NCBI GenBank assembly: GCA_963704165.1
Contig: CAVPHD010000005.1
Span: 192,001-256,000 of the forward strand
Reading direction: 5' to 3'
DNA length: 64,000 nucleotides
DNA from: an uncultured delta proteobacterium
GTDB lineage: Bacteria; Myxococcota_A; UBA9160; SZUA-336
In this document: positions 25,119 to 64,000 of the stretch, in pieces
Layout: each line of letters begins with the position of its first letter
Numbering within the stretch: position 1 is the first letter of the stretch
Notes under the pieces: generated by a model
Seen by the model: the letters and a program-made list of their open reading frames with translations, nothing else
Databases searched by the model: none
Told to the model about the DNA's origin: nothing
Position numbers and translations under genes: made by a program

Positions 25119-25682
25119 ATGAAGATCTACACGAAGGGCGGGGATACCGGGCAGACCTCCCTGTTTGGCGGGGAACGGGTCAGCAAGAGCGCTCCACGCG
25201 TTCGTGCGTACGGCGAGGTCGACGAGCTGAACTCGGTGCTCGGCGTCGCCGCGACCGAGATCGCACACGACGACCTGATGGCGATGCTGCGCGTGATCCA
25301 GTCGTCGCTTTTCGATCTCGGCGGCGAGCTGGCCACGCGCGCCGGCGATGCGAAGGGGGAGCGAGGCCGCGGGGCGGCACGCGTCAGCGATCGCGACGTA
25401 GCCGAACTCGAGGGCTGGATCGACGCGCTCGAAGCCGAGCTCGAGCCGCTGCGGAACTTCATCCTGCCCGGAGGCATCAAGGGCGCGGCACTGCTTCATC
25501 TGGCGCGGACGGTCTGTCGTAGGGCGGAGCGCGAGCTGATCGCGCTTCGCGAAGTCGAAGACATCGATGCGGTACTCGTTCGATACCTGAATCGCCTCTC
25601 GGATCTGATCTTCGTGATGGCGCGCGCGATGAACCGGCGAGCCGACGTCGCGGAGCCGCAGTGGATCGGACGCGAGCGTTGA
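25119..25682 (+). CDS. pduO: ATP:cob(I)alamin adenosyltransferase (PduO type)
   Basis: MKIYTKGGDTGQTSL, AYGEVDELNS, FILPGG, ARTVCRRAER, YLNRLSD. Confidence 0.93.
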   Translation: MKIYTKGGDTGQTSLFGGERVSKSAPRVRAYGEVDELNSVLGVAATEIAHDDLMAMLRVIQSSLFDLGGELATRAGDAKGERGRGAARVSDRDVAELEGWIDALEAELEPLRNFILPGGIKGAALLHLARTVCRRAERELIALREVEDIDAVLVRYLNRLSDLIFVMARAMNRRADVAEPQWIGRER

Positions 25683-26281
25683 CCGAGGTGGAGTACGCGA
25701 AGCTGCTCGTCTCGATCGGTGCGGTCGAGCTCCGGACCGATCCGGCGACGTGGTTCACCTGGGCTTCCGGTGAGCGGGCACCCATCTACTGCGACAATCG
25801 GATCGTGATGTCCCATCCGTCGGTGCGCAAGCAGATCGCCGATGGTCTCAGCTCCGCGATCCGCCGCACCCATCCCGATGCCGAGGTGATCGCGGGTACG
25901 GCCACGGCCGGCATTCCGCACGCGGCCTGGGTCGCCGAGCGACTCGACCTGCCGATGGTCTACGTCCGCGGTAGCGCGAAGGAGCACGGCAAGGGGAAGC
26001 GCGTCGAAGGGAAGGCGCTTCGCGGCGAGCGCGTGGTGCTGATCGAGGATCTGGTTTCGTTCGGCGGCAGCGCGCTGGCGGCGGTCGAGGCGCTGGAGGA
26101 CGAAGGCGGGAAAGTGGTCGGGGTGCAGGCGATCTTCAGCTACGGATTTCCGAAGGCGGCGGAGCGCTTCGCGTCGGCCGGAAAGCCCGTGCATTCGCTG
26201 ACCGGATACGACGCGCTGCTCCAGACGATGACACTCGACGAGGTCACGAAGCGAGCGCTGCTCGCTTGGCGAGCGCGCTGA
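25679..26281 (+). CDS. pyrE: Orotate phosphoribosyltransferase
   Basis: FTWASG..APIYCDNR, GTATAGIPH, KEHG, VVLIEDLVSFGGS; TTG overlapping pduO stop. Confidence 0.93.
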   Translation: MTEVEYAKLLVSIGAVELRTDPATWFTWASGERAPIYCDNRIVMSHPSVRKQIADGLSSAIRRTHPDAEVIAGTATAGIPHAAWVAERLDLPMVYVRGSAKEHGKGKRVEGKALRGERVVLIEDLVSFGGSALAAVEALEDEGGKVVGVQAIFSYGFPKAAERFASAGKPVHSLTGYDALLQTMTLDEVTKRALLAWRAR

Positions 26282-27215
26282 AGCCGTCGAGCGCCGAGCC
26301 CGGACTCGCGACGACGAGCGCCTCGGCGGCCGCTCTTCCGCCGACGCGCTCGAGCCCGAAGCTCCCGTAGCGGCGCACGAAGAGCTCGAGCGCCCAGGCG
26401 AGACGCGCGCGGGCGCGGCGTGTCTCGAGCTCGCCGTGCAGGAGATGCGCGCGGTGGCTCGCAATCGCGGCGGCGACCTCGCCGATTCCGACTCCCGTCT
26501 GACTGCTCGCGCCGATCACGGGCGGCCGCCAGGCGCCAGGCGCGAGCGTCGAGAGACCGAGCCAGCTCTCGAGGTCCGCGCGCGTTCGCGTGGCCTGCGT
26601 GCCGAGATCCCACTTGTGGACCACGAACACGTCGGGAATCTCGAGGATGCCCGCCTTCATGAACTGAAGGGTGTCGCCAGAGCCGGGCTGCAAGACGAGG
26701 ACGACCGTCTCCGCGACGGTCTCGACGTCGATCTCGCTCTGCCCGACGCCGACCGTTTCGACGAGCACCGTCCCGAAGGCCGCGCGAAGCACGACGACGG
26801 CGGCGCGTGTCGCCGGCGCGAGACCGCCGAGCTGGTCACGCGCGGCCATCGAACGGACGAAGACGCGCTCGTCCGGACGAAATCGCAGACGTGCGCGATC
26901 GCCGAGCAGGGCTCCGCCGGATCGACGGCTCGTCGGGTCGACCGCGACCATGCCCACGCCCTCTCCGCGGGCCAACCACTCGCCGATCAGCGCGCCGGCG
27001 AGCGTCGACTTGCCCGCGCCCGGCGGGCCGGTCAGCCCGACGACGGCGTGCGCGCGTGGTGTCTCGAGATCGAGTCGGCCGATGAGCGTGCGAATGGTTT
27101 CGAGTGACTCGGGGCGCGTATCCTCGACGCGCTCGAGCGCGGAGGCAATCGCTGCAGCGTCCCCCGAGCGCACGTCGCGCACGAGCGCGTCGAGGTTCGC
27201 GTCAGCCGACGCCAT
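26244..27215 (-). CDS. meaB: Acyl-CoA mutase-associated GTPase MeaB/ArgK
   Basis: GLTGPPGAGKST, AVDPTS..SGGALLGDR, VETVGVGQSE, GDTLQFMKAG. Confidence 0.92.
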   Translation of the reverse strand: MASADANLDALVRDVRSGDAAAIASALERVEDTRPESLETIRTLIGRLDLETPRAHAVVGLTGPPGAGKSTLAGALIGEWLARGEGVGMVAVDPTSRRSGGALLGDRARLRFRPDERVFVRSMAARDQLGGLAPATRAAVVVLRAAFGTVLVETVGVGQSEIDVETVAETVVLVLQPGSGDTLQFMKAGILEIPDVFVVHKWDLGTQATRTRADLESWLGLSTLAPGAWRPPVIGASSQTGVGIGEVAAAIASHRAHLLHGELETRRARARLAWALELFVRRYGSFGLERVGGRAAAEALVVASPGSALDGFSALAKRAALAS

Positions 27216-29142
27216 GTGCCGAGGCGGCGATTTCGACCATCTCGCTCAGGATGCGCAGCACGTCGTAGTCGCGAGGCGTGTAGACGGCGGCGACTCCTTC
27301 GGAGCACAGCTTCGCGGCGTCCGCCTCGGGGATGATTCCACCGACGATCACCGGCACCGATGCGCGGCGCGCGATCTCGGGCGCGAGCGCGAGGTGCGAG
27401 CCCGAGAGGATCGAGAGCCCGATCAGGTGCACCCCTTCCTGCAGCGCGGCCGTCACGATCTCGTCGGTGGTCATGCGGATTCCCTGGTACACCACCTCGA
27501 GTCCGGCGTCGCGCGCGAAGATCGCGATCTGCTCTGCGCCGCTCGAGTGGCCGTCGAGCCCGGGCTTTCCGACGAGCAGCTTGAGCCGCCGGCCGAGCTT
27601 CGCGCTGACCTCGTCCACACGCTTGCGCAGCGTGCCGAGCCGCGCGGCGTCGGAGCGCGGCGCGACGGCTGCATCGACTCCCGTGGGCGCGCGAAACTCT
27701 CCGAACACGGTGCGGAGCGCATCGGCCCACTCGCCCGTCGTCACGCCGGCGTGCGCGCAGCGCACCGAAGGCTCCATCACATTCGAGCCCGAAGCGAGCG
27801 CGTCGCGCAATCCGCGCAGCGCCGATTCGACCTCGGACGAGCTCCGATTCGCGCGGTGTGCGCGCAGGCGCTCGACCTGTTCGCGGCCCTGCGATTCGTC
27901 GACCGACAGGATGGAGTTGGCGCCCTGAAGCAGCGGCGAGGGCTCGGCCTCGCTGAATCGATTCACGCCGACCACGATGCGCTCCCCTGCCTCGATCGAA
28001 GCGACGCGCCTCGCGTTCGCCTCGACGAGCGCTCGCTTCATGTAGCCCGATTCGACCGCGGCGATCGCGCCGCCCTGCTCGTCGATTCGCGCGATCTCGG
28101 CCCACGCGGCCTTTTCGATCTCGGCGGTCTTCTTCTCGATCACGACCGAGCCCTCGAAGATGTCGGGGTACTCGAGGATGTCCGTCTCGTAGGCGAGGAT
28201 CTGCTGGATTCGCAGCGACCACTGCTGATCCCACGGCCTCGGTAGCCCGAGGGCTTCGTTCCAGGCGGGAAGCTGGAGCGCGCGGCAGCGTGCGTCGCGC
28301 GAGAGCGTCACGCCGAGTGCCTCGAGTGCGATTCGCGGCACGTTGTTCTCGGGTTGCGCCTCGGTGAGGCCGAGCGAGTTCACCTGCACGCCGTAGCGGA
28401 AGCGGCGCTGGGTCTCGTCCGTCACGCCGTAGCGCTCGAGCCCGATCCGCTCCCACATGCGGGTGAACGCGCGCAGCTTGCAGATCTCCTCGATGAAACG
28501 GATTCCGGCGTTGCAGAAGAACGAGATCCGTCCGAAGACCGGTCCGAGCTTCTCGCGCGGAACGCGCACCGAGTCGAGCACGGCCATCGCGTTGGCGAGC
28601 GAGAACGCGATCTCCTGCACCGGCGTCGCGCCGACCTCCTGCAAGTGATACGAGCAGATGTTGATCGGGTTCCACTTCGGCACCCGCTCGACGGTCCACT
28701 CGATCATCTGGCGCGTCAGGTCGAGGGACGGCCGGGGCGGGAACACGTAGGTCCCGCGCGACAGGTACTCCTTCACGATGTCGTTCTGCGTCGTGCCCTG
28801 GAGCACTTCGCGCGCGACGCCGCGCCGCTCCGCCACCGCGACGTACAGCGCGAGCAACCACGCGGCCGTCGCGTTGATCGTCATCGACGTGTTCATGCGG
28901 TCGAGCGGGATGCCTTCGAAGAGCTGCTCCATGTCGGCGATCGAGCCGACCGGAACTCCGACCTTGCCGACTTCGCCGGCCGCGAGCGGATGGTCCGCGT
29001 CGTAGCCGGTCTGCGTCGGCAGGTCGAACGCGATGGAGAGGCCCGTCTGCCCCTTGGCGAGGTTCTGCCGGTAGAGTTCGTTCGACGCGCGGGCGTTCGA
29101 GTGACCCGAGTAGGTGCGGAAGATCCAGGGTCGATCAGTCAC
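27202..29142 (-). CDS. meaA: Ethylmalonyl-CoA mutase (MeaA/Ecm), B12-dependent
   Basis: PWIFRTYSGHS, GQTGLSIAFDLPTQTGYD, YGVQVNSLGLTE, B12 motif KPGLDGHSSGAEQIA. Confidence 0.9.
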   Translation of the reverse strand: MTDRPWIFRTYSGHSNARASNELYRQNLAKGQTGLSIAFDLPTQTGYDADHPLAAGEVGKVGVPVGSIADMEQLFEGIPLDRMNTSMTINATAAWLLALYVAVAERRGVAREVLQGTTQNDIVKEYLSRGTYVFPPRPSLDLTRQMIEWTVERVPKWNPINICSYHLQEVGATPVQEIAFSLANAMAVLDSVRVPREKLGPVFGRISFFCNAGIRFIEEICKLRAFTRMWERIGLERYGVTDETQRRFRYGVQVNSLGLTEAQPENNVPRIALEALGVTLSRDARCRALQLPAWNEALGLPRPWDQQWSLRIQQILAYETDILEYPDIFEGSVVIEKKTAEIEKAAWAEIARIDEQGGAIAAVESGYMKRALVEANARRVASIEAGERIVVGVNRFSEAEPSPLLQGANSILSVDESQGREQVERLRAHRANRSSSEVESALRGLRDALASGSNVMEPSVRCAHAGVTTGEWADALRTVFGEFRAPTGVDAAVAPRSDAARLGTLRKRVDEVSAKLGRRLKLLVGKPGLDGHSSGAEQIAIFARDAGLEVVYQGIRMTTDEIVTAALQEGVHLIGLSILSGSHLALAPEIARRASVPVIVGGIIPEADAAKLCSEGVAAVYTPRDYDVLRILSEMVEIAASAHGVG

Positions 29143-49179: not shown

Positions 49180-50405
49180 AGAAGAGCGAGTTCTTCCGCC
49201 GCGCGCGCACGGACCTTCCCGGTCCACTCGCGGGCTTGAGCGTTCTCGAGGCGACGACGACATGGGCCGGGCCGATGTGCGCATGCGTGCTCGCCGACTT
49301 CGGCGCCGATGTGATCAAGGTCGAGCTTCCGGGGGGTGAGGTCGCGAGACGGCTTCCGCCGACGCTGCCGGACGGCGAGCCGCCGCTCTCGTTCATGCAC
49401 GTGACCGCGAATCGAAACAAGCGCAGCCTGACACTCGATCTGCGCCGACCCGAGGGACGCGACGTCTTCCTCGCGTTGGCTGCGCGTGCGGACGTGGTGG
49501 TCGAGAACTTCCGCCCCGGAACGATGGCTGGATGGGGACTCGGCTACGAGCACGTGCGGACGGTTCGACCCGATACGGTGTACGTCTCGATCAGCGGATA
49601 CGGGCAGTTCGGTCGCGACAGCGAGCGCGCCGGGTACGACCCGATGGCGCAGGCCTCGAGTGGCTGGCTGTCGTTGAATGGCGAGCCGGACGGAGCGCCG
49701 GTGAAGGCACCGACCTTCATCGGCGACGACCTCGCGGGTCTGCACGGCGCGCTCGCGGCGATGGCCGCCCTTCGTCACCGTGATCGCACCGGTGAAGGAC
49801 AACACTGCGATGTGGCGTTGCAGGACGCGCTCCTCTTCCAGTCGAATGGCTACCCGATGCTCGCCGCGCTCGGCGTGCCGCTCCCGCGCATGGGCAGTCA
49901 GTTCGTAGTCGCGGCACCGGCGGGCGTGTACGCGTGCAGCGACGGATTCGTCATGCTCGGAGTCCTGCTCGATGCGCACTGGAGGACTCTCGCGGGCTTG
50001 CTCGGTCATCCCGAGCTGGCGACGCACGCCGACTACGCCACCACCATGGGCCGAGTCGCGCACCGCGCCGAGTTGAACGCCCTGGTCTCGGAGTGGGTCG
50101 CGGAGCTTCCGGTCGCGGACGTCGTTGCTCGCCTCGAGGTCGAGGGCCTTCCCGCATCACCCGTGCGCAGCTTCGCCGAGTCCGCAAGCGATCCGCACGT
50201 GCTCGAGCGCGACATGCTGCAGACGGTCGTGCTCGAGAACGGCCGACCGGCGCCCGTCGTCGGGCCGGCGACCAAGTTCTCTCGAACGCCGGTGCGCGTG
50301 CGTTCGGCTGCGCCGGCACTCGGAGCACACAACGACGAGATCCTGGCCGAGATCGGACTCGACGAGGCCGCGCGCGCGCGACTTCGCGACGACGGGATCG
50401 TCTAG
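49176..50405 (+). CDS. CoA transferase, family III (CaiB/BaiF)
   Basis: AGP...LADFGADVIKVE, NRNKRSL.LDL, ADVVVENFRPG, ISGYGQ, GYD, APALGAHN. Confidence 0.92.
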   Translation: MKKSEFFRRARTDLPGPLAGLSVLEATTTWAGPMCACVLADFGADVIKVELPGGEVARRLPPTLPDGEPPLSFMHVTANRNKRSLTLDLRRPEGRDVFLALAARADVVVENFRPGTMAGWGLGYEHVRTVRPDTVYVSISGYGQFGRDSERAGYDPMAQASSGWLSLNGEPDGAPVKAPTFIGDDLAGLHGALAAMAALRHRDRTGEGQHCDVALQDALLFQSNGYPMLAALGVPLPRMGSQFVVAAPAGVYACSDGFVMLGVLLDAHWRTLAGLLGHPELATHADYATTMGRVAHRAELNALVSEWVAELPVADVVARLEVEGLPASPVRSFAESASDPHVLERDMLQTVVLENGRPAPVVGPATKFSRTPVRVRSAAPALGAHNDEILAEIGLDEAARARLRDDGIV

Positions 50406-51199
50406 TCCCGCGCTCTCGTTCGGGTGAGGACGAGAGCCAACGCGGCGACACCAATCAGCGTCGTGGCCGGAGCCTCCGGCACGGCGACGATGGCGTCGAT
50501 CTCCGAGGCGTACGTGTCGTCCGCGGGCTGCCAGATCCGCACGTACTCGATCCAGGGCAGGTCGAAGTCCGCGAGGTCGATCCCGACGCCGCCGCCGGCA
50601 CCGGCGTACAGCGCCGCGATCTGCGCGGTGTCGAGCCCGACGAAGTCGGAGGCGTCGAGCGACGGATCGACCGGAAGCGTGAAGCGGGTCGGAATCGTTC
50701 CTCCCGCCGAGAACGGCCCCGTCGGGTCGCGATACGCGAGCGTCGGGAAGAGTGTGTCCGCGAAGATCCCGATGGCGTCGATCCAGAAGACGCCATCCTG
50801 ACTGAGCGAGATCCGCGCCGGCTCGCCGAAGACCACGCCGTCGGCGAGCCCGGTCTCGAAATCGATGCCGAGGAACGCGTTTCCGTAGATCAAGAGATCG
50901 ATCCCGAACGGATTTGCGGGATCGTCCTCGACGAGTCGGTCGAAGCGAACGATCAATTCGCCGCCGGCTCCGATCGCGACGACCTGCTCCGGGAGATAAG
51001 CTGCGTTGAACGGCGTGACGTCGCCGTCGTAGGGACCGTTCCCCGTCGAGCGCGCGGGCGCGCCGAGGGAGCTGAGCGGATCGTCCCACCCGAAGGGCAC
51101 GTTGCTGCCGGGCGTGTAGCTGACGACCTGCGTCGCGAACGACGAGGCGAACGCGGGATGCGCCAGTACGCAGAGCAATGAGAGGACGAGCATTCGCAT
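50402..51199 (-). CDS. PEP-CTERM surface protein under a cobalamin riboswitch, putative BtuH-like B12-binding domain
   Basis: SD aagga; signal peptide; C-terminal VPEA + hydrophobic helix + basic tail; motifs IGAGGELIVRFD, DLLIYGNAF, EPARISLSQDG, GGVGIDLAD, IEYVRI. Confidence 0.75.
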   Translation of the reverse strand: MRMLVLSLLCVLAHPAFASSFATQVVSYTPGSNVPFGWDDPLSSLGAPARSTGNGPYDGDVTPFNAAYLPEQVVAIGAGGELIVRFDRLVEDDPANPFGIDLLIYGNAFLGIDFETGLADGVVFGEPARISLSQDGVFWIDAIGIFADTLFPTLAYRDPTGPFSAGGTIPTRFTLPVDPSLDASDFVGLDTAQIAALYAGAGGGVGIDLADFDLPWIEYVRIWQPADDTYASEIDAIVAVPEAPATTLIGVAALALVLTRTRARD

Positions 51200-51240
51200 G
51201 TGGATTCCTTTCTCGCGGCCGGAGAAGTTCATACCCACGT

Positions 51241-51386
51241 GGAAGGCCGGTCTTCTGGCTCCCGGATCACTCTCACGCCGCGCCTTCCCAGGATCTCGCG
51301 ATCCCAGTGGCTTGCTCATGCGGCGCTCGTCCCCGGATACAGCGACGGGCTCGCGCCGGATTCCCACCGGCTTCCCGACACCTTCC
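51241..51386 (-). ncRNA. Cobalamin riboswitch (leader of the PEP-CTERM gene)
   Basis: Minus strand: GGAAGGUG..GGGAAGCCGGUGGGAAUCCGGC..CCCGUCGCUGU..GCCACUGGG..GGGAAGGC..AGCCAGAAGACCGGCCUUCC (B12 box; P1 GGAAGG/CCUUCC). Confidence 0.9.
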
Positions 51387-51481
51387 ACGACTCTTGTCGG
51401 GCGAGTACTACGCCGTCGTCGACGGCGGGTCAAGCGTGTCGCGGTTGACACGCGAGCGCGGCGGGTGATAACGATTCGCCC

Positions 51482-51640
51482 ACTCGGTGTCCGCGATGCG
51501 GACCAATGAGGGAAGGCCGTGAGAATCGGCCGCGGTCCCGCCACTGTGATGGGGAAGTCAGACCGAACGAAGCCACTGGGGAATGCCCTGGGAAGGCTCG
51601 GATCCGACGCTCGACCCCTGAGCCAGGAGACCTGCCGAGT
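51482..51640 (+). ncRNA. Cobalamin riboswitch (leader of btuB)
   Basis: ACUCGGUG..AUGAGGGAAGGCCGUGAGAAUCGGCCGCGGUCCCGCCACUGUGA..GCCACUGGG..GGGAAGGC..AGCCAGGAGACCUGCCGAGU. Confidence 0.95.
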
Positions 51641-51682
51641 TTTCGGGACGATCGTCCCGCTCTCCGCGGAGGGAGTCACTCG

Positions 51683-53776
51683 GTGCAGAAGAGTCACTGG
51701 CGAATCGCGTGTGCTCCGGCGCTCGCACTCCTATTAGCGACGGCTTCGCGCGCTCCGGCCGGTGAGCTGTCGGAATCTCCCGACGATCCGTCCGCCTTCA
51801 CCACGGTGATCGATGCACGCGCGTTCGACGAGCGGTTCGCGACCGTCGAGGAGGTTCTCGGTCAGGTTCCCGGCGTGCGCGTGCGCCGTTTCGGCGGGCT
51901 CGGTTCCTCGAGCACGGCCTCGATCCGAGGGTCGAAGTCGGAGCAGGTTCTCGTCCTGCTCGACGGTGTACGGCTGAACAGCGCGCAGCTCGGATCGGTG
52001 GACCTCTCGACGATTCCGCTTCGCCAGGTCGAGCGAATCGAGGTGATCCGCGGCGGTGGCTCCGCGCGCTACGGCAGTGACGCCGAGGGGGGTGTCATCG
52101 CGATCACGACGCGCAAGCCCGAGAGCGAGGCGCTCGGAGCCGACGCTTCGTTCAGTGCCGGATCCCAGTCGACGCTGGGCGGAGACCTCGCGATCTCCGG
52201 GGGCGGTGAGCGGGCACGCGGGCTCGTGACCTACTCGCGCCTGCGCAGCGAGAACGACTACCGCTTCGAGATCGAGCCACCTCCACGCGGTGGTGGCGGC
52301 CGTCCGGGCACGGGAAGCGCCGCGGGTGGTGCGGCGACGCACACGAGGCTCAATGCGGACTTCGTCGAGAATGCGGGGCTCATGCGCGGGTCGCTCGAGA
52401 CCGGCCGTCACTCCAGCCTCGACGCCACGCTCGACCTCTACGAGAAGGACGGTGGCGAGCCCGGTGGAACCTGGGGCAAGCCGGTCGTCGACGTTCCCGA
52501 CGACGTGGTCTCGTGCGTCACGGCCGACGAGTCGTACCGCCGCGGCGTCGGACGTCTGGCGTGGAGTCACTCGCGCGCATTCGGAGGCTCGCTCTCGATT
52601 GCCGGCGCGCTCCGTTCCGAGGACTCGGAGCTCGACGATCCGGGCGGCGCGTGCGGATTCGTGTCGCCGATCGTGACCGGCGGACGCGATCAGGCCCACT
52701 CGAGCGAATCCGAATCGTCTCTCGAGGCGCGCTGGGTTTCGGGTTCGAAGCTCTTCGGTCCGCTCGAGCTCGGCGCGCGTGCCGGGTCGGGCATCCGATA
52801 CGCACGTGTCGATGCGTCGGAGTCGGACGTTCACCGCCGCACGACGGTGTTGATCTCGATCCAGCCCGAGCTCGCGCTCTTCGATCGAGAGCTTCGGCTG
52901 TTCCCGGCGCTCGGCTTCGAGCGCGCGGACACGAGCGAAGGCGAGGCTCGCAGGTCGGCCTCCCAGCCGATGGTGCCGGTCTCGCCGCGCGACGAGAACG
53001 CGTGGTTGCCCTCGGTCGGCGCGATCTGGCAGGTGGCGCCGGGACTGCGCGCGAAGGCGAACTGGAAGCGCGTGCTTCGCCGTCCGACCTTCACGGATCT
53101 TTTCCATCCCGACTGGGGGTTCATCCGCGGAAACCCCGAGCTGCTCTCGGAGCGCGGCTGGAACGCGGACGTCGGATTCGAGCTCGCGGGTCGCGGCTCC
53201 GGACCCCTCGGAGATCTGCGACTCGAGGCGGACGTGTTCCAGCGTGAGCTCGACGAGGGAATCGAGTGGGTGCTGAACGTGAACAACGCGTACATGCCCT
53301 TGAATACCGGCCCGTCGCGCGCGCGCGGCGTCGAGGTCGGGCTCGGCGCGACGCTCTTCGAACGCCTGCAGATCGGCGCGTCCTACACCTACACCGACGC
53401 ACGCTATCTCGGTGGTGGCAGCGACGCCGCCTACGAGAGCGGCGTCGAGCGGATCTTCCCGCACGTTCCCGAGCACGCGTACTCGCTGAATGCCGCAGTC
53501 GACCTCGGCGCGCTCGAGCCTTGGACGGAGCTGCGCTACGAGAGCGAGGTCTCCTACCAGGTCGGGCGCGCGACACTCTCCGACGACGCGCTTCAGATCG
53601 ATGCCGGCGTGATCCTCCGGCCGGAGCGCATGCGCGGCCTCGCGTTCCTGCCGTCGGGCGTGACGCTCTCGGTCGAGGCTTCGAACCTGACGGGCGAGCA
53701 GCGCAGTGACTCCCTCGGGCAGCCCCTACCGAATCAGACGCTCTGGCTGGTTCGTGTTCGCGGTGCGACGAGATGA
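51683..53776 (+). CDS. btuB: TonB-dependent receptor, cobalamin transporter BtuB-like
   Basis: GTG after ggagggag; plug motifs VPGV, SIRGS..EQVLVLLDGV, IEVIRG..SARYGSDA.GGVI; GNPELLSE; directly behind a B12 riboswitch. Confidence 0.85.
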   Translation: MQKSHWRIACAPALALLLATASRAPAGELSESPDDPSAFTTVIDARAFDERFATVEEVLGQVPGVRVRRFGGLGSSSTASIRGSKSEQVLVLLDGVRLNSAQLGSVDLSTIPLRQVERIEVIRGGGSARYGSDAEGGVIAITTRKPESEALGADASFSAGSQSTLGGDLAISGGGERARGLVTYSRLRSENDYRFEIEPPPRGGGGRPGTGSAAGGAATHTRLNADFVENAGLMRGSLETGRHSSLDATLDLYEKDGGEPGGTWGKPVVDVPDDVVSCVTADESYRRGVGRLAWSHSRAFGGSLSIAGALRSEDSELDDPGGACGFVSPIVTGGRDQAHSSESESSLEARWVSGSKLFGPLELGARAGSGIRYARVDASESDVHRRTTVLISIQPELALFDRELRLFPALGFERADTSEGEARRSASQPMVPVSPRDENAWLPSVGAIWQVAPGLRAKANWKRVLRRPTFTDLFHPDWGFIRGNPELLSERGWNADVGFELAGRGSGPLGDLRLEADVFQRELDEGIEWVLNVNNAYMPLNTGPSRARGVEVGLGATLFERLQIGASYTYTDARYLGGGSDAAYESGVERIFPHVPEHAYSLNAAVDLGALEPWTELRYESEVSYQVGRATLSDDALQIDAGVILRPERMRGLAFLPSGVTLSVEASNLTGEQRSDSLGQPLPNQTLWLVRVRGATR

Positions 53777-55545
53777 GTGCTGCAGCCGTCCTGCTCGCCG
53801 CGACGCTCAGCGTCGGCTCGGCCTCGACCGACACGCTGCTCGTCGATGCGTTCGCGCCCCCGGCACTGGAGTCACACCCGACCGACGCCGACCGCGCGTT
53901 CGTCGCCGCGTCGAGCAATGGCCCGGGCGTCTTCGAGCTGCGGATCGCGCCGGGGCAGTCGCTCGCCTACGTGGGCGCGTCGTATCTGCTCCCGGGGAAC
54001 CTGAACTGCACGGAGTCGGCGCCCTTCACGGTTCCGACGCTCGGAAACGTGACGCTCGAGCGCGGGACCGGCGCGAGCCGGGGCTGGATCACGACTTCGG
54101 GCTGCGAGCTCGCTTTGCCGTTCAACTGGGCGACCGGCGCCGGATGGCCGTTGCTCTACTCGTCGCAGAGCCGCACGTCGGTTCCGACCCGGCACACGAT
54201 CGCAGGCGCCTTCACGCGCTATCAGAACGGCGGCGGCGGCGCCTCGATCAGCTCGTTCAAGACCAACTTCACGAGCGCGGCGCTTCGGATCGGGAGCCGG
54301 CTGGTGGTCGCGACCTCGAACATCCATCAGGCGGGGTCGAATCCGGTCTGGAACCCCGGCACGGTGCTCTTCTTCGCGATCGACGATTCCGGGCCGACGA
54401 CGACCGTCGCGCCGGCGAGCCCGTTCTTCGCGATCACCTCGGAGCCGAACCCGGTCGCGCTGACCGAGCTCCCCGGTGGGCGCGTTGCGGTGACCAACGC
54501 GGGGATCTTCGATGCCGGCTTTCCTCCGCAGCTCACCGGCCGGGGCAGCATCGACGTGCTCGACGCGCAGACAGGACTCTTCGTCGGCTCGATTCCACTC
54601 GGAGCCGGCAATCCGGCGGGCCGTGGGCTCGCGCTCGATCCGACGAGTTCGGTCGCGGTCGCGGGTTCTGCGACGTTGCGCCAGCTGGTCGCGATCGACA
54701 TTCGCGGCATCGCGGCGCTTTCGACGGTCGCGGTCGATGCGCGCCTGCAGCGACCGTCGTGCAATGACGGCACGCCCGCGACCGCCGGGGGCGTCCCGTG
54801 TCTGCGTGAACGGGTGATCCGCGACGGCGCGAATCCGATCGTACTCCCGCCGCCACCGGGATCGAGCGGTCTCTACTCGTACGTCTCGCAGGTGCGCTTC
54901 GGCGCCTCGGGGGACTTCCTCGCCGCCACGTCGTACAACGACGGAGGCCTCGCGCTGCTCGCCTTCGACCCCCGGAACCTCTCGACGCCGCACCCGCTGC
55001 TCGCGTCGCGTTTCGGTGTAGCCCAGACGCTCGCCGCCACGGGCCCCGCCGGCGTGATCGGCGAGGAGTGCTGTCCGGGTCCGATGATCCTGCACGCGAA
55101 CAGCGGGGGAGGACTCGCTGGCGCGGATCTCCTGCTCGCGACCGCGAGCCCCAACGGCATCGTCGTTCGCGGGCACCTCGCCGGAGCCGTCACGTCCGCG
55201 ACCGGTGATCACGATGGCGACGGCGTCGAGGACGCGCTCGACGACTGCCCGGTCACTTCGAACGCCGCACAGACCGACTCGGGTGGACTCGCGACCCCGG
55301 TCCCCGATGGAATCGGCGACGCGTGTCAGTGCGGCGACTCGAGCGGCAACGGCATCGTCGATCTCGCGGACGTGGGCGCGCTGCGCTCGTTCCTGGCCGG
55401 CTCTCTGGGCGCGCTTCCCGCGCCGGAGAAGTGCGACGTCGGAGGCAGCATCGGCTGCGATCTCGAGGACTTCGTCCGGCTGAGTCGGGCGCTCGGGGGA
55501 CTCGCGCCCGGGATCGCGCATGTCTGCGGGCCGTTTCTCCCGTAA
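53773..55545 (+). CDS. Secreted beta-rich (propeller-like) protein with TSP3-like and dockerin-like C-terminus
   Basis: ATGA coupling to btuB; signal peptide; NPVALTELPGGRVAVTNAG, GSIDVLD; tail DHDGDGVEDALDDCP..DGIGDACQCGDSSGNGIVDLADV..CDVGGSIGCDLED. Confidence 0.75.
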   Translation: MSAAAVLLAATLSVGSASTDTLLVDAFAPPALESHPTDADRAFVAASSNGPGVFELRIAPGQSLAYVGASYLLPGNLNCTESAPFTVPTLGNVTLERGTGASRGWITTSGCELALPFNWATGAGWPLLYSSQSRTSVPTRHTIAGAFTRYQNGGGGASISSFKTNFTSAALRIGSRLVVATSNIHQAGSNPVWNPGTVLFFAIDDSGPTTTVAPASPFFAITSEPNPVALTELPGGRVAVTNAGIFDAGFPPQLTGRGSIDVLDAQTGLFVGSIPLGAGNPAGRGLALDPTSSVAVAGSATLRQLVAIDIRGIAALSTVAVDARLQRPSCNDGTPATAGGVPCLRERVIRDGANPIVLPPPPGSSGLYSYVSQVRFGASGDFLAATSYNDGGLALLAFDPRNLSTPHPLLASRFGVAQTLAATGPAGVIGEECCPGPMILHANSGGGLAGADLLLATASPNGIVVRGHLAGAVTSATGDHDGDGVEDALDDCPVTSNAAQTDSGGLATPVPDGIGDACQCGDSSGNGIVDLADVGALRSFLAGSLGALPAPEKCDVGGSIGCDLEDFVRLSRALGGLAPGIAHVCGPFLP

Positions 55546-56300: not shown

Positions 56301-56537
56301 TCAGTCGTCGGTGTCGTCGTCTACGTCGGATTCCCGAGACGGGTCCATGGCGTCATCGACGTCCACCTCGCGGCTCTCGTCGTCGAGGTCGTCTACGTCG
56401 AACTCCCGCGAGGGATCCATCGCGTCGTCCACGTCCACCACTCGGCGCTCGTTCGGCTCCTCATCGGCGAGCGACGTTTGCGCCAGGAGCAGGCCCGACA
56501 TCAGCCCGACGGCAATCAGCGTGCGTACGGTCGTCAT
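56301..56537 (-). CDS. Small secreted acidic repeat protein
   Basis: Signal peptide then two copies of VDVDDAMDPSRE.DVDD; alternative start at 56546. Confidence 0.7.
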   Translation of the reverse strand: MTTVRTLIAVGLMSGLLLAQTSLADEEPNERRVVDVDDAMDPSREFDVDDLDDESREVDVDDAMDPSRESDVDDDTDD

Positions 56538-56584
56538 GCCGGACATGATCGGCAGGGAGCCGGCAGCTTTGTAGCGACGAATGA

Positions 56585-63880: not shown

Positions 63881-64000
63881 ATGCTCATGCGGAAGTTGCT
63901 CGGATTCTGTACCCGGGCGCCAGCAGCGTTCGTCGCCTTGGCGCTGGGATTGGTCGCCCAGCCAAGCTTCGCATTGCCCGTCGTGTGCGAGCCGCCGGCT
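63881..64000 (+). CDS. Start of a probable secreted protein (runs off the window)
   Basis: SD ggaggg; MLMRKLLGFCTRAPAAFVALALGLVAQPSFA signal-peptide-like. Confidence 0.5.
   Translation, partial: MLMRKLLGFCTRAPAAFVALALGLVAQPSFALPVVCEPPA

Follow-up and report, generated by a model that had tools for sequence, protein, structure and literature searches.

Do two cobalamin riboswitches that stand back to back in a myxobacterial genome lead the parts of a single vitamin B12 capture system at the cell surface? The locus lies in a 64,000-nucleotide stretch of DNA, referred to here as the window, from an uncultured delta proteobacterium (GTDB lineage Myxococcota_A; UBA9160; SZUA-336). A first-pass annotation of this stretch had proposed such a system, in which one switch leads a TonB-dependent receptor coupled to a secreted protein and the other leads a PEP-CTERM protein. 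Our analysis favors, with a probability of roughly 70%, the view that this two-operon, B12-riboswitch-led locus serves cell-surface cobamide capture and import by means of a BtuH-type catcher, a propeller partner and a BtuB-like receptor. The link of the locus to B12 and the homology to BtuH support the proposal in part; a link between the propeller and BtuG was not found.

Both riboswitches were recovered with Infernal and the Rfam covariance model RF00174 (gathering score 31.5 bits), at 124.1 and 99.2 bits and over the full model, on the plus and the minus strand respectively. The cores delineated in the first-pass annotation sit within the Rfam matches and the gap of about 95 bp given there agrees: the two elements face outward and are separated by 95 bp from core to core and by 67 bp between the Rfam ends. 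No other Rfam family was matched anywhere in the window, and in the genome, which is 3.87 Mb and 84% complete, RF00174 has no match besides these two. The plus switch (186 nt) and the minus switch (173 nt) agree at 114 aligned positions, and plus-type and minus-type switches are each conserved separately among relatives. Because of this limited match and separate conservation, the pair does not represent a recent duplication. Outward-facing TTGAC-type promoter patterns were found as a pair between the switches in 16 of 19 loci and in none of 5,000 shuffles, a lenient test since the pattern was derived from the same loci on which it was scored; a strict sigma70 scan of the locus returned no promoters. 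As conserved hairpins overlap or abut the ribosome-binding sites of both operons, and a scan of the leaders revealed no terminator downstream of either aptamer, the switches are likely to act by translational repression. A simple folding model in which blocking of the segment behind the aptamer would hide the ribosome-binding site showed no consistent effect across 16 loci.

The protein encoded behind the minus switch is, judged by predicted fold and by profile searches, a remote BtuH homolog, that is, a member of the BtuH superfamily that is not a lipoprotein. This goes beyond the first-pass annotation, in which the capture system was considered analogous. Single-sequence searches of Pfam, NCBIfam and PDB gave no meaningful match to the main domain, a first profile built from close homologs also missed BtuH, and only broader profiles reached it. 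The H-domain of BtuG1 was matched by a 95-homolog profile at E 0.0027 and by a 36-homolog profile at E 5.5e-6, where it was the sole match at E ≤ 1. The AlphaFold2 model is a confident beta-sandwich (predicted local distance difference test, pLDDT, 92.2). Foldseek ranked BtuG1 (8BLW_B, E 1.2e-5) and BtuH2 (7BIZ, E 8e-5 and 3.5e-4) in the first three places, and these were the only matches at E ≤ 0.001. In a comparison with 48,161 chains, VIA-align also placed these two structures on top (Z 13.2 and 12.8; runner-up 10.0), the top match having 145 residues aligned with a root-mean-square deviation of 2.9 and 22% identity. The B12 contacts described for BtuH2 include Q333, N399, F401, H476, Y510, W511, W577 and L578 (PMC8941943). 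Asn107 of the window protein, which does not vary among 36 diverse members, likely corresponds to BtuH2 Asn399, and Phe109 to Phe401, an assignment made from spacing. The domain is strongly acidic (31 Asp plus Glu versus 7 Lys plus Arg). The protein has no Cys and consequently lacks a lipoprotein export signal of the Bacteroidota kind.

Instead of a lipid, the BtuH-like protein carries a C-terminal tail resembling the PEP-CTERM sorting signal. The PEP motif is present in 68 of 76 close homologs, and TIGR02595 was matched by three of the five homologs tested. The genome has three matches above cut-off to the exosortase family PF09721 and 20 matches to a PEP-CTERM pattern, of which about 15 were judged by eye to be true PEP tails. 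The gene of a further PEP-CTERM protein starts within the window at 63881-64000 and continues past its end.

The plus switch leads, as had been described, a TonB receptor coupled to a second exported, beta-rich protein: the receptor gene shares 4 nt at its stop with the next gene in each of the 20 loci examined, and the downstream product is a predicted beta-propeller. Among 33 NCBIfam families, TIGR01779 (BtuB) scored best for the receptor at 151.7 bits, and a profile of the receptor family compared with PDB found Escherichia coli BtuB first (E 8e-47; next receptor 6e-41). The terminal Phe/Trp of the receptor is absent in all 20 copies from the taxonomic family of the window's organism and present in 14 of 17 sister-family copies; its loss (window 53740-53776) co-varies with loss of the lipobox of the propeller. 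The propeller model has a pLDDT of 92.6, and residues 7-472 align with WD40/YncE propellers at Z about 30; we assume seven blades, a count carried over from these templates. Its language-model look-alikes are clusters of the YncE/lactonase type, and single-sequence searches of Pfam, NCBIfam and PDB with the main domain found nothing. Three fold searches listed generic propellers throughout, with BtuG not among the matches listed, which does not exclude similarity to BtuG. By position and modeled fold the propeller appears to be a counterpart of BtuG, its membership of that family not being demonstrated. In the window's genus its leader (53773-53800) consists of about nine apolar residues, none of them basic, followed by a conserved ATL[ST]VG motif; in other genera of the family the same motif is preceded by normal signal peptides of about 20 residues. 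Fusion of receptor and propeller by a programmed frameshift, considered in view of the short leader, was rejected as unsupported, no slippery run being seen by eye in 20 junctions. Fused longer propeller forms numbered 0 among 7,988 candidates, which is weak evidence.

Table 1. Features of the divergent riboswitch locus (positions in the window)
Feature	Position	Strand	Basis or remark
btuH-like gene, 265 amino acids	50402-51199	-	signal peptide ~1-18, acidic beta-sandwich BtuH-type domain ~19-239, PEP-CTERM-like tail 240-265
PEP-CTERM-like sorting tail, VPE-APA variant, hydrophobic helix, basic end	50405-50482	-	sequence; predicted helix 246-263
Cobalamin riboswitch leading btuH-like gene, without P2 arm	51228-51400	-	RF00174 99.2 bits, E 1.4e-23, model positions 1-189
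Predicted sigma70-like promoter, TTGACC-17 nt-TAGTAC	51405-51433	-	paired outward-facing pattern search
Predicted sigma70-like promoter, TTGACA-15 nt-TGATA	51445-51473	+	pattern in 13/17 loci, background 0.0006
Cobalamin riboswitch leading btuB	51468-51653	+	RF00174 124.1 bits, E 1e-30, model positions 1-189
Conserved hairpin holding btuB ribosome-binding site	51660-51675	+	likely translational control
BtuB-like TonB-dependent receptor, 697 amino acids, GTG start, without terminal aromatic residue	51683-53776	+	plug PF07715 and barrel PF00593 above Pfam cut-offs
Exported protein, 590 amino acids: very short apolar leader, predicted beta-propeller ~10-472, TSP3 repeat, dockerin-like tail	53773-55545	+	4-nt ATGA overlap with btuB stop
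Dockerin-like tail	55321-55542	+	10 further predicted proteins in the genome carry it

The propeller of the window's family differs from those of sister families at both ends. A hydrophobic signal ending in Cys, with a Gly-rich linker, is found in 18 of 18 sister-family propellers (16 by pattern and 2 by eye), none of which has a dockerin-like tail. In the window's family, the lipobox is found in 0 of 19 propellers (two loci are without the N-terminus and one has a pattern match after a normal signal peptide), and 18 of the 19 have the dockerin-like tail, the remaining one ending at a contig edge. In view of this distribution, replacement of the propeller lipobox by a TSP3/dockerin-like tail can be read from the sequences as a change that took place during the evolution of a single class. 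The similarity of the tail to solved dockerins is weak (E 0.056 with the single sequence; E 0.0045 to 0.07 with profiles), and TSP_3 scored 24.8 bits versus a cut-off of 25. The genome encodes 11 predicted proteins with the tail, which stands at the end of some of them and within others; it is thus a module common among secreted proteins here, and a role in anchoring is putative. The cohesin domain PF00963 was not found in the 84% complete genome. Anchoring by exosortase and dockerin-like tails in place of lipidation, as suggested in the first-pass annotation, therefore stands as far as loss of lipidation and the presence of exosortase genes are concerned; the dockerin half of it is putative, no cohesin having been detected and the tail being internal in some other proteins.

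The context of homologs ties the locus to B12 further. GTDB relatives of the BtuH-like protein numbered 278 after confirmation, and the best 80 loci were analyzed. A profile search with nhmmer detected a switch upstream on the same strand in 74 of these 80 and gave no matches on reversed loci; four of the six loci without a switch have less than 500 nt of upstream sequence. Rfam confirmed the switches in 12 of 13 loci of one set and 17 of 19 of another. Most of the 80 loci belong to Planctomycetota and have as neighbor a DUF1559 prepilin-like gene (a cluster found in 55 loci). No receptor like that of the window was detected beside the BtuH-like gene in the Planctomycetota loci. Their usual arrangement (e.g. 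L027:5567-7646) is a switch followed by a BtuH-like PEP-CTERM gene and the DUF1559 gene, often with a PQQ-type propeller gene. Within the window's phylum, BtuH-like matches were found in 107 of 201 genomes; most are distant, and many are predicted lipoproteins by eye. A switch lies upstream in at least 24 of 27 of these distant myxobacterial loci (18 within 1.5 kb, some of them weak, and at least 6 more in widened loci). In other myxobacterial families (L124:5674-6141, L132:5421-5891) a small lipoprotein without a Pfam match is encoded between the switch and a BtuH-like lipoprotein; it is a candidate for a further B12 binder.

A survey of 141 genomes of the class showed that the divergent layout recurs. 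Close orthologs of the receptor and the propeller occur together in the same 19 of the 31 genomes of the window's family, as well as in the window's genome. All 19 have two switches, which form a divergent pair in 18 of the 19 among the matches listed. In 18 of 20 loci the second switch is followed by a BtuH-like open reading frame (a close homolog in 16, a partial one in 1 and a distant one in 1), the other two loci being cut at contig ends. In sister families a single switch is the rule, and 80 of the 141 genomes have distant homologs of the propeller. Six sister-family loci consist of a switch, btuB, the propeller gene, more exported genes (PEP-CTERM in four) and then a BtuH-like gene; both of the two operons checked among them end in a TonB gene, and in two other sister-family loci the BtuH-like gene stands ahead of btuB. 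These sister-family operons (L116-L121) are divergent from or beside a gene of the dienelactone hydrolase family, and their extra PEP-CTERM proteins are about 340 amino acids long.

The minus gene appears to differ in ancestry from the BtuH-like genes of its class sisters. A quick tree built from 77 domains groups the BtuH-like proteins of the window's family with homologs from the Planctomycetes-Verrucomicrobia-Chlamydiae (PVC) bacteria and apart from their class sisters (Shimodaira-Hasegawa-like approximate likelihood ratio test, SH-aLRT, 100; branch 1.74), about half of the PVC rows being omitted. On 33 rows, a single clade uniting the family with either six or eight of the class sisters was rejected by the approximately unbiased (AU) test (p 3e-5 and 9e-106). 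The direction of transfer is not shown, since the tree has no root and its PVC rows came from a search with the family's own alignment. Since the gene groups with Planctomycetota and not with the class sisters, the second cassette was likely acquired by transfer, and replacement by a transferred switch-plus-btuH cassette is the simplest reading. A self-contained cassette of the Planctomycetota type would thus have landed head to head with a resident btuB operon, and the presence of two switches would likely be due to the cassette having carried its own.

The proposed capture system would work as follows. At low B12 both switches would leave the ribosome-binding sites open and both operons would be expressed. 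The BtuH-like protein would be exported, processed by exosortase and displayed on the surface, where a Gly-Asn-Ala-Phe pocket would bind the nucleotide loop of the corrinoid. The propeller would act as a BtuG-like lid or feeder of the receptor. TonB would then draw B12 into the periplasm, from where a BtuF/C-like ABC transporter encoded away from the locus would deliver it to the cytoplasm for the mutases and methionine synthase. A bolder account, which we consider less likely than not, is that a lid-capped B12 importer arose independently in this class of Myxococcota and that its relay became lipid-free, the lipobox giving way to a calcium-binding dockerin-like tail, the terminal aromatic residue of the receptor being lost and an exosortase-anchored BtuH cassette being gained, with its riboswitch, from PVC bacteria.

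Several observations weigh against the surface capture reading. The match to BtuH is remote, covering 145-150 of about 225 residues with a Foldseek template modeling (TM) score of 0.36; carbohydrate-binding modules share the fold class at Z 8-10. The position of BtuH2 Gln333 is variable, with no conserved counterpart in the BtuH-like alignment, and the corrin-contacting His, Tyr and Trp of BtuH2 could not be mapped onto the window protein. Its tail, in the window copy, is the VPE-APA variant and matches no Pfam or NCBIfam hidden Markov model; the initial description as a PEP-CTERM protein rests on the tail seen in the sequence and on the homologs. The TIGR01779 score of the receptor is far below the equivalog cut-off of 599.7 bits. 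Neither two profiles nor PF16819, which we take to be the BtuG model, linked the propeller to BtuG, and the protein is near neutral (28 Asp plus Glu versus 24 Lys plus Arg). Without a lipobox and with a leader of about nine residues, the propeller of the window's genus could be periplasmic. Finally, the simple folding model mentioned above did not reproduce switching of the ribosome-binding site.

A first alternative concerns the propeller. If the BtuH-like protein binds B12 as proposed, the propeller might nevertheless be a periplasmic partner, acting as a receiver, a helper of receptor assembly or a corrinoid hydrolase and not as a surface lid. The very short leader in the window's genus, the missing lipobox and the YncE/lactonase-type look-alikes would fit, and a receptor that has lost its terminal Phe/Trp throughout the family may need such a helper. 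We consider this unlikely given that the sister-family homolog, encoded in the BtuG position, has a Gly-rich linker and is a lipoprotein, that the tail is found on other secreted proteins and that the genome has a type II secretin. It is quite improbable that the two units are mere neighbors, an ordinary btuB-propeller uptake operon beside a B12-repressed surface protein that binds carbohydrate or another ligand. CBM32 and lectin folds do come next in the structural comparison, the minus gene differs in ancestry from the class's own BtuH-like genes, and the Planctomycetota loci were found without a receptor of this kind; against this, BtuH2 and the BtuG1 H-domain came first by three methods, a B12 switch precedes nearly all the homologs analyzed, and the sister-family homolog is located within the btuB operon. 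B12 switches also govern cobalt transporters, which, together with the low equivalog score of the receptor, would be compatible with import of cobalt or incomplete corrinoids instead of B12. This we regard as very improbable: CobS was detected in 1 of 32 family genomes, so the known route could not finish cobalt or precursors, and the closest solved relatives of the receptor are BtuB.

The surface capture reading thus predicts, on sequences and models, a locus that works like the Btu relay of Bacteroides thetaiotaomicron (BtuB-BtuG, BtuH, BtuJ and BtuK; PMC6143338, PMC8941943, PMC10404256, PMC12751083, PMC13616437). That relay has in common with the window locus riboswitch control, a BtuB-type receptor with an adjacent propeller gene and a BtuH-domain protein; the low capacity of the host for B12 synthesis is also shared. 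The window locus differs by its occurrence in Myxococcota, the absence of lipoproteins, the PEP-CTERM tail on the BtuH-like protein and the TSP3/dockerin-like tail on the propeller, as well as by its two divergent transcription units, unlinked btuFCD and a propeller without detected homology to BtuG. With BtuH2 (BT1956, 7BIZ) and the H-domain of BtuG1/BtuGH (BT1490, 8BLW), the window protein shares the fold and the motifs V.Y.PG, SLG.GG, GNA and EPG.V.VS.D; it differs from them in its 21-22% identity, the lack of an Ig/PKD or propeller fusion, a C-terminal PEP tail in place of an N-terminal lipid and a pocket that is partly unmapped. E. coli btuB, the product of which is the best PDB match of the receptor family, likewise has a switch in its 5' leader; unlike the window locus, it is described in PMC6143338 without accessory capture genes. 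The Leptospira lipoprotein family NF033170 (LIC_13355) was matched, at best with E 8.5e-17, by 22 of the 36 proteins in the broad BtuH-like alignment and not by the window protein itself. The terms B12, cobalamin and BtuH do not occur in the main text of the LIC_13355 paper, and the family may be an unrecognised BtuH relative.

According to one report, BtuG was found only in Bacteroidetes among 313 gut genomes (PMC6143338), and lipoprotein-capped TonB transporters have been described as seemingly exclusive to that phylum (PMC10404256). Outside Bacteroidota, a 2026 review lists BtuH for three Firmicutes only (PMC13616437), and two other papers show B12 binding by each of the two BtuGH domains and a spread of the BtuJ family across phyla (PMC12751083, PMC13398666). 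Among papers outside subscription, without their supplements, none was found that combines BtuH with PEP-CTERM or describes the present system; homolog tables in supplements may list BtuH or BtuG relatives from outside Bacteroidota. PEP-CTERM and the cobalamin riboswitch occur together in literature on denitrifying reactors. The locus suggests that multi-protein surface capture of B12 also occurs in an environmental phylum, with another anchoring chemistry. Its parts and logic are those of the known Btu system, so that a paradigm would be broadened and none founded. The unannotated BtuH-like family has 1,017 representatives at E ≤ 1e-10; if binding by this small soluble domain is true, it would assign a function to this large family, and more than 1,000 unannotated proteins would gain a ligand.

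The physiology of the genome fits reliance on imported B12, to judge from its gene content: CobS, rare in the family, was not found in it, and it has five matches to the methylmalonyl-CoA mutase family, a fragmented MetH, one BtuF-like gene with an adjacent FecCD-type gene, both unlinked to the locus, and genes for TonB and the type II secretin GspD. The genes for MetH (G000:C7:5625-9176) and the FecCD-type permease (G000:C1:556062-556890) are in frameshifted pieces, which are probably assembly errors. The B12 users that had been noted in the window correspond to a cluster of pduO (25119-25682), which passes the cut-off, a MeaB-like GTPase gene (26244-27215), just below the cut-off, and a methylmalonyl-CoA-mutase-family gene (27202-29142). 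The cluster lies more than 21 kb away, outside the locus, and provides context only; the Rfam scan of the window revealed no riboswitch near it. At 56301-56546 a small secreted acidic protein is encoded that contains repeated DVDDAMDPSRE-like units.

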